Source: Escherichia phage FP43. Taken from it: 64,000 bases of DNA. Numbering within the stretch: the first letter of the stretch is position 1; every line of letters begins with the position of its first letter. The translations under genes were made by a program, and so were the position numbers. Of this stretch, positions 15,759 through 20,203 are shown piece by piece. The notes under the pieces were generated by a model, which worked only from the letters and a program-made list of their open reading frames with translations, was not told the DNA's origin and ran no database searches. Location of the stretch: sequence record MN648445; one strand, 5' to 3'.

Positions 15759-16844
<1,086 letters not shown>

Positions 16845-16845
<1 letters not shown>

Positions 16846-17526: not shown

Positions 17527-17556
17527 GTTTACAACATGGTGGAGTTGTGATACTAT
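17527..17556 (+). promoter_or_regulatory. Early promoter
   Basis: GTTTAC 17527-17532, 18-nt spacer, TGTGATACTAT 17546-17556; leader CAACAAATGAGGAAAT. Confidence 0.6.
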
Positions 17557-17584: not shown

Positions 17585-17821
17585 ATGCTAAGTGAAAACC
17601 CAATTACAGTACACGAATTTCAGATTAAAGTAAAAGAATTTGCTCAAGCACTCATCAATAAAGTGTCTGAACGTTTCCAAGATGCAACATTACGAGTTAT
17701 TCAAGAATCTCCACGTTCTTTTCTCATAATCGTTAATCCTAAAGATGGTGACCAAATTACTAATCTTAAATTAGGCAGTGATGGTCTTGTTGAAGCAACT
17801 CGAGTATATGGAACACTATAA
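17585..17821 (+). CDS. Hypothetical protein
   Basis: 78-aa ORF with GAGGAAA RBS. Confidence 0.45.
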   Translation: MLSENPITVHEFQIKVKEFAQALINKVSERFQDATLRVIQESPRSFLIIVNPKDGDQITNLKLGSDGLVEATRVYGTL

Positions 17822-17941
17822 TGAGAGCTATCTCATTACTATCGAGAATGGTCATAAATCTGAGCACTACCAACTTAGCCTATCTAATCCGGTTAAAGGT
17901 ATTGTTGAATCAGAATCTGTTTATATCTCCTAAGGATTGTT

Positions 17942-18934
17942 ATGTTACCTGTCATCAGAAAACTTATTTCTCCAAAAGAACTGGCTGAGATTATTCCTTT
18001 GTCGGAAGCTTACGCATCACAAGTGGCTTCTCATCGCGAACAAGTTAATTCGATTATGAACGGTGAAGACCCACGCAAACTTATTGTTGTAGGTCCTTGT
18101 TCAATTCATGACCCTATTGCTGCTGTTGAATACGGCAAACGTCTGGCTGAACTTCAAACTCGTCTTCCTAATGTTCTGTTAGTGATGCGCGTTTATTTTG
18201 AAAAGCCTCGAACTACCGTAGGTTGGAAAGGTCTTGTAAATGATCCATATCTTGACGGAAGTTTTGATATGAACCACGGTCTTATAGTTGCACGAACATT
18301 GTGTCGTAAACTTCTACGTATGGGACTTCCATTAGCAACTGAAGTATTAGACCCATTCACGATTAAGTATCTTTCTGGTATTTTCTCATGGGTTGCTATT
18401 GGCGCCCGTACGACTGAAAGTCAGACACATCGTGAAATTGCTTCGGGTCTACCGATGTGCGTAGGCTTCAAGAACGCAACCAATGGTTCTATTAAAGTAG
18501 CTACAGACGCGATGTATAGTGCCGCCTGGCCTCATCGGTATATGGGTATGGACGTCGATGGTACTGTAGGCATTGTTGAAGCTGAAGGTAATCAGAATAC
18601 GCATATCGTATTGCGTGGCGGGACCAACGGCCCGAACTATCATTCTTCTGATATTCAAGAAGCTTCTAACAAAGCAAGGGCAGTAGGTCTGAATCATTAT
18701 GTAATGGTTGACTGTAGCCATGCAAACGCTGATGGGCATTATAGCAATCAAATTGGTATTGGTAAAAATTTAGCAGCTAATGATTTGGTCAAAGGAATTA
18801 TGATAGAATCATTCCTACATGAAGGAAATCAAAAAATTTCCGATAATATGTCCTATGGCGTTTCCGTTACCGATGCGTGCATCAGTTGGGAACAAACTAA
18901 AGAGCTGTTAACTTATATTAATAAGGTTCAATAA
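17942..18934 (+). CDS. 3-deoxy-7-phosphoheptulonate (DAHP) synthase, class I (AroG/AroF/AroH-like)
   Basis: 330-aa ORF with motifs VGPCSIHDP, LVMRVYFEKPRTTVGWKGL, IGARTTESQTHRE, GFKNATNGSIKVA, DCSHANA, ESFLHEGNQ, TDACISWE that align along E. coli AroG as recalled; RBS AAGGA; stop overlaps cd start. Confidence 0.85.
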   Translation: MLPVIRKLISPKELAEIIPLSEAYASQVASHREQVNSIMNGEDPRKLIVVGPCSIHDPIAAVEYGKRLAELQTRLPNVLLVMRVYFEKPRTTVGWKGLVNDPYLDGSFDMNHGLIVARTLCRKLLRMGLPLATEVLDPFTIKYLSGIFSWVAIGARTTESQTHREIASGLPMCVGFKNATNGSIKVATDAMYSAAWPHRYMGMDVDGTVGIVEAEGNQNTHIVLRGGTNGPNYHSSDIQEASNKARAVGLNHYVMVDCSHANADGHYSNQIGIGKNLAANDLVKGIMIESFLHEGNQKISDNMSYGVSVTDACISWEQTKELLTYINKVQ

Positions 18935-19515
18935 TGAAAGCTAGCACATACCTTCAGATTGCATATCTGATTTCTCAAGAATCAAAATGTTGTTCATGGA
19001 AAGTTGGCGCAGTCATTGAAAAAGATGGGCGCATTATTTCTACTGGGTATAACGGTTCACCTGCAGGTGGCGTTAACTGTTGCGAACATGCATCTGAAAA
19101 TGGTTGGTTGAAGAATAAACCAATCCCAGTCATCGTTGCTGGGCATAAAGAAGGCACTACAGCATTTGGACGGGCCGATAATTTTGTTTTGGCTAAAGAA
19201 CATCGGGCTGCTCATAGTGCATGGTCTGCCAATAACGAAATCCATGCGGAACTGAATGCAATTTTGTTTGCAGCTCGTAAAGGTAATTCTATTGAAGGTG
19301 CTACGTTGTATACGACACTTTCTCCATGTCCTGATTGCACTAAAGCTATTACACAGTCAGGTATTAAAAAGGTTGTATATGCAGAATTATATGACCGATC
19401 TCCTGAAAATTGGGCAGACATTCTTAAACAAGCTGGTATTGAAGTAATTCAGTACTCTCGTAATAATCTTCGTTCTCTGAATTGGGAACAAATCCGAAAC
19501 TTTTGTGGTGAATAA
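18934..19515 (+). CDS. cd: dCMP deaminase
   Basis: 193-aa ORF, same length as T4 Cd; zinc-binding deaminase motifs HAELNAI and PCPDC. Confidence 0.9.
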   Translation: MKASTYLQIAYLISQESKCCSWKVGAVIEKDGRIISTGYNGSPAGGVNCCEHASENGWLKNKPIPVIVAGHKEGTTAFGRADNFVLAKEHRAAHSAWSANNEIHAELNAILFAARKGNSIEGATLYTTLSPCPDCTKAITQSGIKKVVYAELYDRSPENWADILKQAGIEVIQYSRNNLRSLNWEQIRNFCGE

Positions 19516-19516
19516 T

Positions 19517-19813
19517 ATGATTTTAACTGAACAAGAAACTATGGTTCTTCGTGAACGTATTAAAACTATTCTGTCTGTAGGCGTTCATTGTGTTGTATTT
19601 GAAAAGGCTAACGGTGATGTTCGTACGATGTTTGCCTCCCGTGATGAACTTGAAGTCAAATACGAAAATAACAATCCGGCAACAGAAGTTCGTTATGAAC
19701 CTCGTGAATCAGTTCGAGCATTCGATACCAAGTTAGGCCAGTGGCGTTCTTTCCGCCTTGATAAAGTAATTTCGGTTGATGGTACTCCGGTAGAACGTTT
19801 GCTTCTTATGTAA
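19517..19813 (+). CDS. Hypothetical protein
   Basis: 98 aa from ATG 19517 directly after cd stop; track ORF begins at upstream GTG 19505. Confidence 0.45.
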   Translation: MILTEQETMVLRERIKTILSVGVHCVVFEKANGDVRTMFASRDELEVKYENNNPATEVRYEPRESVRAFDTKLGQWRSFRLDKVISVDGTPVERLLLM

Positions 19814-19870: not shown

Positions 19871-20203
19871 ATGTCTGAAGTACAACTCCCAATTCGTGCT
19901 GTTGGTGAATATGTCATTCTGGTTTCTGAACCCGCTCAAGCAGGTGATGAAGAAGTTACCGAATCAGGACTTGTGATTGGTAAACGTGTTCAAGGTGAAG
20001 TTCCTGAACTATGCGTAGTTCATTCTGTAGGTCCTGATGTTCCTGAAGGTTTTGTTGAAGTCGGTGATTTGACTCCACTACCAGTTGGACAAATTCGAAA
20101 TGTTCCACATCCATTTGTGGCTTTGGGACTTAAACAACCTAAAGAAATTAAACAGAAATTCGTAACATGCCACTATAAAGCTATTCCGTGTCTTTATAAG
20201 TGA
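19871..20203 (+). CDS. 31: Head assembly co-chaperonin gp31 (GroES functional analogue)
   Basis: 110-aa [36 protein letters not shown] matches T4 gp31 by recall. Confidence 0.9.

Follow-up and report, generated by a model that had tools for sequence, protein, structure and literature searches.

An open reading frame (ORF) of 330 codons in Escherichia phage FP43 (sequence record MN648445), lying in the 64,000-nucleotide stretch of DNA analysed here (the window), almost certainly encodes a DAHP synthase (DAHPS; DAHP is the 7-phosphate of 3-deoxy-D-arabino-heptulosonate), the enzyme of entry into the shikimate pathway. It belongs to a clade of phage enzymes in which the allosteric (feedback) site has been rebuilt, and which keeps company with a Peptidase_U32 (U32) gene of the arabinosyl-5-hydroxycytosine (Afh) cluster and, in related genera, with a chorismate mutase. 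The best overall explanation, which the evidence favours to a modest degree, is that deregulated entry into the shikimate pathway supplies prephenate for an O2-independent hydroxylation of cytosine by U32. Taken by itself, the proposition that the purpose of the DAHPS is to supply U32 with prephenate is evenly balanced. More tentatively, and a little less probably, a second, O2-independent route to 5-hydroxycytosine may exist in T4-like phages whose hosts are facultative anaerobes, and in several uncultured viruses unrelated to them; in this route an iron-sulfur (Fe-S) enzyme of the U32 family would work with prephenate whose supply is secured by the phage.

A Full-Length Class I-alpha DAHP Synthase

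A sequence-only reading of the window had proposed a full-length class I DAHP synthase, and the ORF listing bears out the reading frame (Table 1). The seven motifs quoted for it are present (at residues 50, 80, 153, 175, 257, 289, and 310), and family profiles match far above their cutoffs: Pfam DAHP_synth_1 (PF00793) with E=5e-75 and 252 bits (cutoff 25.5), the NCBIfam aroFGH equivalog TIGR00034 with 428.5 bits (cutoff 173.2), and PRK12755 with 455.9 bits (cutoff 343). PHROG 5045 ("phospho-2-dehydro-3-deoxyheptonate aldolase") is matched at 606 bits, with residues 1-330 covering profile positions 8-337 of 341. The isoenzyme equivalogs for AroG (364.5 bits, cutoff 568) and AroH (386.7 bits, cutoff 463) are not reached. 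Among solved structures in the PDB, E. coli AroF (6agm) scores highest with 354.8 bits; N. meningitidis DAH7PS and AroG (310.8 bits for AroG) come next. An AlphaFold (AF2) model of the 330-aa protein, computed from an alignment of 40 sequences, has a predicted template modelling score (pTM) of 0.87, and Foldseek superposes it on AroG and NmeDAH7PS (1kfl, 1qr7, 4hsn) with TM 0.88-0.90. The model has the class I-alpha architecture, consisting of a (beta/alpha)8 barrel, the beta6a/6b insertion, and an N-terminal extension shortened by 8-9 residues.

Residues were compared in an alignment of 29 phage-clade and 98 bacterial sequences, including E. coli AroF, AroG, and AroH. The metal ligands Cys53, His260, Glu289, and Asp311, which had seemed intact on first inspection, are invariant in all 29 phage and all 98 bacterial sequences. 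The residues for phosphoenolpyruvate (PEP) and erythrose-4-phosphate (E4P) are likewise invariant in the 29 clade members (Arg83, Lys88-Pro-Arg-Thr91, Glu134, Gly154-Ala-Arg156, Lys177, and Arg225). The KPRT motif stands where 3-deoxy-D-manno-octulosonate 8-phosphate (KDO8P) synthases have KANRS, and no KDO8P synthase (KDO8PS) model is among the NCBIfam matches, which together rule out that identity. To judge from these residues, the enzyme is catalytically competent and would condense PEP with E4P to DAHP. The class I-alpha fold, metal ligands, KPRT motif, and PEP/E4P residues are all shared with AroF (6agm) and AroG (1kfl). AroF is 52% identical and belongs to the bacterial group that lies nearest in neighbour-joining (NJ) trees, and Gly202 of the window enzyme matches the AroF-type residue at the specificity position, which is Ser211 in AroG.

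A Rebuilt Allosteric Site

An alignment column was taken to discriminate phage from bacterial sequences when at least 90% of the former had one residue, at least 85% of the latter had another, and the phage residue occurred in no more than 5% of bacteria. Only seven of about 340 aligned columns do so. In AroG numbering, these are Pro150 (Ile in phages), Gln151 (Lys), Asp155 (Gly), Leu156 (Ile), Ser180 (Pro), Phe209 (Tyr), and Thr223 (Ala). The replacement residues are near-invariant within the clade (28-29 of 29), and Gln151 is present in all 98 bacterial sequences. The N-terminus is shortened as well, with 46-50 residues before the GPCS motif in phages against at least 56 in bacteria, and the segment that carries AroF Asn8 (AroG Asp6/Asp7) is absent from all 29 phage proteins. 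The shortness had already been pointed out, although not its exact extent, which is 8 residues relative to AroG (about 7 had been stated) and 9 relative to AroF. It is real, because the nearest in-frame stop upstream of the ATG lies at 17906 and no start codon occurs in between.

In the bacterial enzymes, Gln151/Gln152 and Ser180/Ser181 hold the main chain of bound Phe or Tyr, and a salt bridge of Asp155/156 stabilises the inhibitor site; the AroG variants P150L, S180F, and F209A/S are feedback-resistant (PMC9529685), as are AroF N8K and Q152I (PMC11843938). All seven discriminating positions fall within segments that bear the inhibitor site for aromatic amino acids. Five or more of them are documented as belonging to this site, and none has a catalytic role, from which we infer that the enzyme is probably largely insensitive to Tyr, Phe, and Trp. 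The phage clade keeps neither Gln151, Ser180, Pro150, and Phe209 nor the N-terminal Asp6/Asp7 or Asn8. The earlier suggestion that a short N-terminus might alter allostery is supported and is extended by the replaced inhibitor-contact residues. Whereas AroF and AroG have 350-356 aa, the window enzyme has 330 and differs by Q151K, S180P, P150I, D155G, F209Y, and T223A. Engineered feedback-resistant enzymes, which include AroG L175D/Q in addition to the variants above, coincide with the clade at AroG positions 150, 151 (AroF 152), 180, and 209. Compared with them, the phage proteins are without the whole N8 segment, and their changes are natural, multiple, and fixed (Ile, Lys, Pro, Tyr).

The per-residue confidence of the AF2 model (pLDDT) falls below 50 only at residues 91-94 (18212-18223), 136-138, and 140-159 (136-159 corresponding to 18347-18418). 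Four of the seven clade-specific substitutions lie in the stretch 136-159, as does the AIGAR loop; either a conflicting alignment signal or true flexibility may explain the low values.

The U32 Gene of the Afh Cluster

The known pathway to the arabinosyl group leads from ribulose-5-phosphate (Ru5P) through arabinose-5-phosphate (A5P), arabinose-1,5-bisphosphate (A1,5P2), and arabinose-1-phosphate (A1P) to UDP-arabinose (UDP-Ara) and has no PEP or E4P step; the phage 5-hydroxy-dCMP synthase, which is thymidylate synthase-like (TS-like), uses O2 and flavin (PMC13326640). The Afh cluster occurs in every genus that carries clade DAHPS. Marfa has no isomerase, but it has an AfhE homologue (43% identity, E=2e-89). 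Within the cluster, the U32 gene sits between AfhF and the TS-like gene and is 79-100% conserved across genera. The products RB69p050 and Marfa_040 match Peptidase_U32 (PF01136) at 42-44 bits (cutoff 22.4), and in 28 homologues (47-87% identity) ten cysteines are conserved without exception. Glu188, Cys195, and Cys206 of RB69p050 align with the essential E161, C169, and C176 of E. coli RlhA, and also with the residues that are essential in TrhP.

RlhA is needed for 5-hydroxycytidine in 23S rRNA and depends on Fe-S clusters, on aroB, aroD, aroE, aroA, and aroC, and on PheA or TyrA acting as chorismate mutase; its proposed hydroxyl donor is prephenate (PMC5727448). TrhP provides a prephenate-dependent route to 5-hydroxyuridine that does without O2 and is redundant with the O2-dependent TrhO (PMC6599085). 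The phage protein thus shares with RlhA and TrhP the U32 domain and the essential Glu/Cys/Cys, the 5-hydroxy-C product chemistry matches the phage base, and the dependence of RlhA on the shikimate pathway, chorismate mutase, and prephenate parallels the phage-encoded DAHPS and chorismate mutase. There are also differences. Phage U32 (~389 aa) is without the DUF3656 and U32_C domains and forms a subfamily of its own, and whereas RlhA and TrhP act on RNA, its substrate would be a deoxynucleotide or DNA.

Association of DAHPS with U32 and Chorismate Mutase

By tblastn, DAHPS is found in 212 phage records (Escherichia 124, Klebsiella 25, Shigella 12, Proteus 7, Serratia 6, Enterobacter 4, Edwardsiella 3). 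The counts for U32, which is found in 221 (Escherichia 136, Klebsiella 26, Shigella 14, Serratia 7, Proteus 7, Yersinia 6, Enterobacter 4, Edwardsiella 3, and others), mirror them by host genus. Every clade-DAHPS genome checked carries U32, including all eight large IMG/VR contigs with clade DAHPS (loci L077-L084, with U32 at L026, L031, L028, L024, L034, L032, L036, and L035).

A third gene joins the pair in many of these phages. In Enterobacter phage Entb_45, the order is arabinose-5-phosphate isomerase (API), AfhE, AfhF, U32, chorismate mutase, and TS-like gene, with overlapping stops and starts. The chorismate mutase (CM) is monofunctional (Table 1). CM_2 proteins of this kind occur in 51 phage records and adjoin the TS-like gene, the U32 gene, or both wherever these are annotated; the records comprise phages of Klebsiella, Serratia, Yersinia, Enterobacter, Edwardsiella, Erwinia, Pectobacterium, Shewanella, Providencia, Morganella, and Kosakonia, as well as EcS1. 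In Mosigvirus, an unrelated small ORF takes this position. Its product RB69p049 (equivalent to JS09_0135) was considered as a diverged chorismate mutase and rejected, as BLASTP, Pfam, and NCBIfam revealed no similarity.

Acinetobacter is strictly aerobic; the hosts of U32 phages are facultative anaerobes. No Acinetobacter phage is found among the U32 matches or the clade-DAHPS records, although 57 Acinetobacter phage records carry arabinose isomerase. In Acinetobacter phage DLP2 (OP946502.1, 21656-25101; L142), API, AfhE, AfhF, and the TS-like gene are contiguous, and exactly the U32-CM pair is absent.

Independent gene neighbourhoods come from unrelated viral contigs of up to 466 kb, where U32 homologues (37-58% identity) lie among genes for Tmk, UDG-like proteins, dCMP deaminase, and DnaE, and often adjoin API- and AfhE-like genes. 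In 7 of 38 such distant loci (IMG/VR, Logan, and ENA contigs), a type I-beta DAHPS stands directly beside U32, with KPRT in all seven. Two of these enzymes (L022:9145-9891 and L037:9384-10127) consist of a bare 248-aa barrel and lack the regulatory domain that PRK08673 has at its N-terminus; their match covers profile positions 95-327 of 338. The other five (L049, L050, L052, L054, and L062) are fusions of DAHP_synth_1 with a C-terminal CM_2 domain. Several of the seven loci also have API- and AfhE-like genes alongside. The I-beta viral homologue scores 63 bits with KDO8PS against 237 with DAHPS. Two DAHPS subtypes, both apparently stripped of their normal regulation, have thus been recruited beside or together with the same U32 gene, along with chorismate mutase. 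The viral fusions resemble bacterial type I-beta DAHPS-CM proteins such as that of Prevotella nigrescens (PMC8408635), but adjoin a viral U32 gene. The window enzyme differs from them in that it is of type I-alpha, stands alone, and is encoded over 100 kb away from the U32 gene.

No cultured phage with an I-beta DAHPS-CM fusion was found. A human-faecal contig fragment, MT837090, has such a fusion at its end and no U32 within its 11.6 kb. In two huge-phage-like contigs, a conserved ORF of ~250 aa without any family match directly follows U32 (L020:9175-9939 and L021:9080-9826; E=3e-87 mutually).

A Possible Prephenate Route and Its Alternatives

The proposed sequence of events is as follows. 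Early transcription from a site upstream of cd.2 (17528-17556) would yield cd.2, DAHPS, and dCMP deaminase, and the DAHPS would condense PEP with E4P whatever the level of aromatic amino acids. Carbon would thereby keep entering the host shikimate pathway while Phe, Tyr, and Trp shut the host isoenzymes. Host AroB to AroC would convert DAHP to chorismate, which would be turned into prephenate by the phage chorismate mutase in most related genera or by host PheA or TyrA in the case of Mosigvirus. U32 would then use prephenate to hydroxylate C5 of cytosine, as nucleotide or in DNA, when O2 is limiting. Where the O2- and flavin-dependent TS-like hydroxylase cannot work, the U32 route would provide 5-hydroxycytosine, after which the arabinosyltransferases would decorate the hydroxylated base. 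The demand may be considerable. A 169-kb genome at 38% GC contains about 64,500 cytosines, and for a burst of 100-200 phages each cell would have to carry out roughly 10^7 hydroxylations, a large demand if prephenate is used stoichiometrically.

Several observations weigh against this account. Mosigvirus, the lineage of the window itself, has no recognisable phage chorismate mutase. U32 stands without DAHPS in RB69, in mar007P3, and in the phages TG1 and phiR1-RT of Yersinia, which makes DAHPS an optional booster at best. In 31 of the 38 distant U32 loci, no DAHPS lies within the fetched stretch (up to 10 kb on each side of U32). Co-occurrence may come partly from shared ancestry, or from recombination confined to phages with the same modification. 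The accessible literature assigns no function to phage U32, and it is still unproven that RlhA and TrhP catalyse the reaction directly and what exactly prephenate does in it (PMC5727448, PMC6599085). Finally, the clade strictly keeps its new residues (Ile, Lys, Gly, Pro, Tyr), a pattern that would also fit a pocket for a new ligand.

This last point leads to an alternative that we consider unlikely, namely that the allosteric site has been retuned and not abolished, with Lys142, Pro171, Ile141, and Tyr200 forming a pocket for another effector (prephenate, chorismate, or a nucleotide) that would place flux under a phage-relevant signal. The new residues show no drift (28-29 of 29) across sequences that are only 56-99% identical, the beta6a/6b hairpin and the beta0 region are kept, and the change of Gln to Lys places a positive charge where the inhibitor carboxylate would lie. 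The same residues are, however, also at the tight-dimer interface, where conservation may be structural, and a ligand is not inferable from sequence. The AF2 model is of low confidence over residues 136-159. A reading that we rate somewhat higher, though still as rather improbable, is that of a generic auxiliary metabolic gene (AMG) that boosts aromatic amino acids, or other products of chorismate such as folate and quinones, in aid of phage protein and nucleotide synthesis and has no specific tie to DNA hypermodification. It is in keeping with an intact and probably deregulated enzyme, with a position among early nucleotide-metabolism genes that include the folate-dependent frd and td, with the absence of a phage chorismate mutase from Mosigvirus, and with the aromatic-amino-acid hypothesis published for Klebsiella phage KLB31 (PMC11845039). 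It does not account for the absence of the gene from some 1000 further T4-like records that share this pseT-cd region, while all clade-DAHPS genomes checked have U32, nor for the dedicated prephenate-forming chorismate mutase that accompanies U32 or the unrelated viruses that put DAHPS or DAHPS-CM fusions directly beside it. Of the original proposal of an AMG for aromatic amino acids, the type of activity stands, whereas the purpose is probably not the whole story, given that both the distribution and the independent gene neighbourhoods tie the enzyme to U32 and chorismate mutase.

The confinement of clade DAHPS to phages with the arabinose (Afh) pathway, which draws on Ru5P (PMC13326640), would also suit an E4P sink that pulls transketolase flux towards pentose phosphates, and so towards A5P for UDP-Ara, or an enzyme that uses A5P as KDO8P synthase does. 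Both versions are very improbable: KPRT is present and KANRS absent, the KDO8PS models do not match the window protein, Acinetobacter arabinose phages are without DAHPS, and the chorismate mutase partner and the fusions would be left unexplained. A direct role in arabinose or KDO chemistry was rejected on the grounds of the same motif and profile results and of the Ru5P-to-UDP-Ara pathway, which contains no PEP or E4P step. That the gene is a neutral passenger, or decaying and without a role in infection, is hardly credible. It is dispensable, being absent from RB69 and mar007P3 and polymorphic within one Mosigvirus species, but its ratio of nonsynonymous to synonymous substitution rates (dN/dS) is 0.14-0.19, its catalytic residues are invariant, its composition is adjusted to the phage, and it has been kept at one locus in at least six lineages.

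Origin and Probable Transfer of the Phage Gene

Megablast returns 139 phage records at >=95% identity, nearly all annotated as DAHP synthase, AroF, or AroG. The gene is present in ~93% of Mosigvirus records (139 of about 150), whose copies are 99-100% identical, while those of Kanagawa-, Marfa-, Winkler-, and Bragavirus, found at the same locus, are 58-77% identical. The first reading had described an insertion in a hyperplastic pseT-cd gap. It is not a private insertion, since the order cd.2, DAHPS, 0-2 small ORFs, cd is conserved in at least six lineages, which include, besides Mosigvirus, Marfa (Marfavirus), CHI14 (Winklervirus), Proteus phage PM2 (Bragavirus), PEi26 (Kanagawavirus), EcS1, and a metagenomic T4-like contig. 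In PM2, a homing endonuclease gene lies between pseT and DAHPS (L009:1606-2322) and is a possible vehicle of local gene exchange.

Homologues fall into two sets: those of the phage clade are 56-99% identical and 319-343 aa long, those from bacteria at most 55% identical and 341-388 aa long. All 100 of 100 NJ bootstraps recover the phage sequences as monophyletic, with enterobacterial AroF as the next group to join. The dN/dS of 0.14-0.19 was obtained against four other genera, and the GC content at third codon positions (GC3) of DAHPS is 30%, as in the neighbouring phage genes, compared with 51% for aroF. Together with the monophyly, these values identify an old phage gene under purifying selection. 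It represents a single phage clade whose ancestor was an AroF-like enzyme of enterobacteria and which T4-like phages have harboured for a long time. Recent capture from a host was rejected because of the low identity to any bacterial protein (<=55%), the phage-like GC3, and the monophyly of the clade. More distant class I-alpha homologues (40-47% identity) occur in giant-virus metagenome-assembled contigs of IMG/VR ("GVMAG" loci L089, L091, L093, and about 30 more), where they may be viral genes or host contamination.

RB69 and mar007P3 lack DAHPS, and in them the cd.2 stop overlaps the cd start directly. When FP43 is aligned with these two genomes, a Mosigvirus-specific 120-nt spacer between cd.2 and DAHPS stands out, which neither of the two has. 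Its frame at 17823-17930 corresponds to the C-terminal half of a foreign Cd.2, most like that of Kanagawavirus PEi26, as seen in the Cd.2 protein alignment (PEi26, Marfa, CHI14) with the spacer (SYLITIENGHKS...VESESVYIS vs SYLITIEKGEKD...VESVSVYKN). The left junction of the spacer has microhomology to the cd 5' end, a local alignment reaching a score of 26 (vs 15.5+/-2.2 for shuffled sequences, equalled in 1 of 1000 shuffles). The closest DAHPS relatives outside Mosigvirus are Kanagawavirus-type proteins (76-77%). On the simplest reading, a segment comprising a foreign cd.2, DAHPS, and cd would have moved laterally from a Kanagawavirus-like phage into an RB69-like ancestor. The foreign cd.2 remnant and the microhomology junction favour such a gain, and secondary deletion in RB69-type genomes is correspondingly less likely. 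The spacer is a recombination scar of the acquisition, and the 41-aa hypothetical ORF annotated over it in JS09 (17808-17933) is not a real gene. One Mosigvirus species is polymorphic for DAHPS, with LR027383.1 (mar007P3) lacking and OZ035759.1 (mar005p1) carrying it, which provides natural controls.

The Locus and Its Expression Signals

The window is a Mosigvirus (JS09-like) segment that runs from gene 34 through rnh, 32, frd, td, nrdAB, denA, rnlA, alc, and pseT towards gene 30. DAHPS is flanked by pseT and cd, as had been noted, with cd.2 as its immediate upstream neighbour: pseT (15946-16845) is followed by four small cd.x ORFs, the last of which is cd.2, and then by the spacer. Downstream lie cd, gp31.1, gp31, and rIII. 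The good ribosome-binding site and the overlap with cd were also correctly described. The TAA stop of DAHPS and the ATG of cd share bases (TAATG, 18932-18936), and the Shine-Dalgarno sequence has an AAGG(A) counterpart in PEi26 and Marfa. Co-expression with early nucleotide-metabolism genes is likely. The promoter-like site upstream of cd.2 (Table 1) coincides with an early promoter between cd.3 and cd.2 in the GiZh phage annotation, and the scan found no terminator-like site on the + strand from there to the end of cd. It is the probable early promoter of a cd.2-DAHPS-cd unit. In the promoter and terminator scan of the region as a whole, match counts were not above those in shuffled sequences, so that the consensus match by itself is weak, and only this site is positionally meaningful.

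The top sigma-70-like match of the region (10/12, with TG) lies antisense within DAHPS (18738-18766, -) and is probably due to chance, as counts were below the shuffle expectation. The genes gp31.1 and gp31 (window 19505-19813 and 19871-20203) encode a WYL_2 (Sm-like SH3) domain protein and a Cpn10-like co-chaperonin, respectively, both ordinary in T4-like phages.

Table 1. Features of the DAHPS locus (window coordinates) and of associated genes elsewhere (records or L-numbered loci as given).
Feature	Position	Strand	Basis or description
Promoter-like site TTTACA-17 nt-TACTAT with TG, upstream of cd.2	17528..17556	+	Consensus scan
cd.2, native upstream neighbour	17585..17821	+	78 aa; DUF7320 E=1.5e-35; PHROG 1504; 96% identical to RB69 Cd.2
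Mosigvirus-specific 120-nt spacer between cd.2 and DAHPS	17822..17941	+	Alignment with RB69 and mar007P3, both without the segment
Shine-Dalgarno AAGGA	17932..17936	+	5 nt before ATG, read from sequence
DAHP synthase CDS	17942..18934	+	330 aa plus stop, ATG start; class I-alpha, AroF-derived phage clade
Cys53, metal ligand (AroG Cys61)	18098..18100	+	Alignment
KPRT motif Lys88-Thr91, DAHPS-type substrate motif	18203..18214	+	Invariant 29/29
Rebuilt allosteric segment: Ile141 (AroG Pro150), Lys142 (Gln151), Gly146 (Asp155), Ile147 (Leu156)	18362..18382	+	Alignment
Pro171 (AroG Ser180, inhibitor-contacting side chain)	18452..18454	+	Pro 29/29 phage, Ser 97/98 bacteria
beta6a/6b regulatory hairpin: Tyr200 (AroG Phe209), Gly202 (AroG Ser211/AroF Gly212), Ala214 (Thr223)	18539..18583	+	Alignment
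His260, metal ligand (AroG 268)	18719-18721	+	Alignment
Glu289, metal ligand (AroG 302)	18806-18808	+	Alignment
Asp311, metal ligand (AroG 326)	18872-18874	+	Alignment
cd, dCMP deaminase	18934..19515	+	Pfam dCMP_cyt_deam_1 E=1.5e-26; PHROG 174
U32 gene RB69p050 / JS09_0134	RB69 NC_004928 26492-27661 = L013:6493-7662; JS09 143822-144982, outside window	- (RB69)	Peptidase_U32
Chorismate mutase, monofunctional, Entb_45	L018:6170-6409		79 aa; Pfam CM_2 40.9 bits (cutoff 27)

Earlier Accounts and Significance

The phage DAHPS gene is not in itself new, having been annotated and catalogued before. A search of phage genomes, suggested together with the original finding, shows as much (139 near-identical and 212 phage records in all, and PHROG 5045), and since both presence and annotation were known, the finding as first written is ordinary. 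The same gene is JS09_0232, ORF64 of phiC120, and the gene of KLB31. The phiC120 genome paper notes the DAHPS domain (PMC8022965), and the paper on the Klebsiella phage KLB31 treats DAHPS as an AMG with a generic hypothesis on aromatic amino acids (PMC11845039). In the literature search, neither a functional study of a phage DAHPS nor a paper that connects prephenate, U32, and phages came to light. The accessible papers on phage DAHPS discuss neither allosteric remodelling nor a link to U32 or chorismate mutase, and the accessible literature on arabinosyl-5-hydroxycytosine phages does not mention U32, prephenate, chorismate, or DAHP. What is new, with no earlier account in the accessible literature, is the clade-wide rebuilding of the allosteric site and the two independent comparative lines that lead to the U32/chorismate mutase module of the 5-hydroxycytosine pathway.

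The phage clade may represent a natural feedback-resistant DAHPS, which is of practical interest for engineering of the shikimate pathway. The Afh cluster has only recently been worked out biochemically, and only for the O2-dependent route. If the link from DAHPS through prephenate to U32 is true, it would explain how gut phages make their anti-restriction modification without oxygen, would give a function to two orphan genes, and would mean that genes labelled as AMGs can belong to pathways of nucleic-acid modification. It would then also be the first case in which a virus rewires the shikimate pathway so as to gain a co-substrate for the chemistry of nucleobases.

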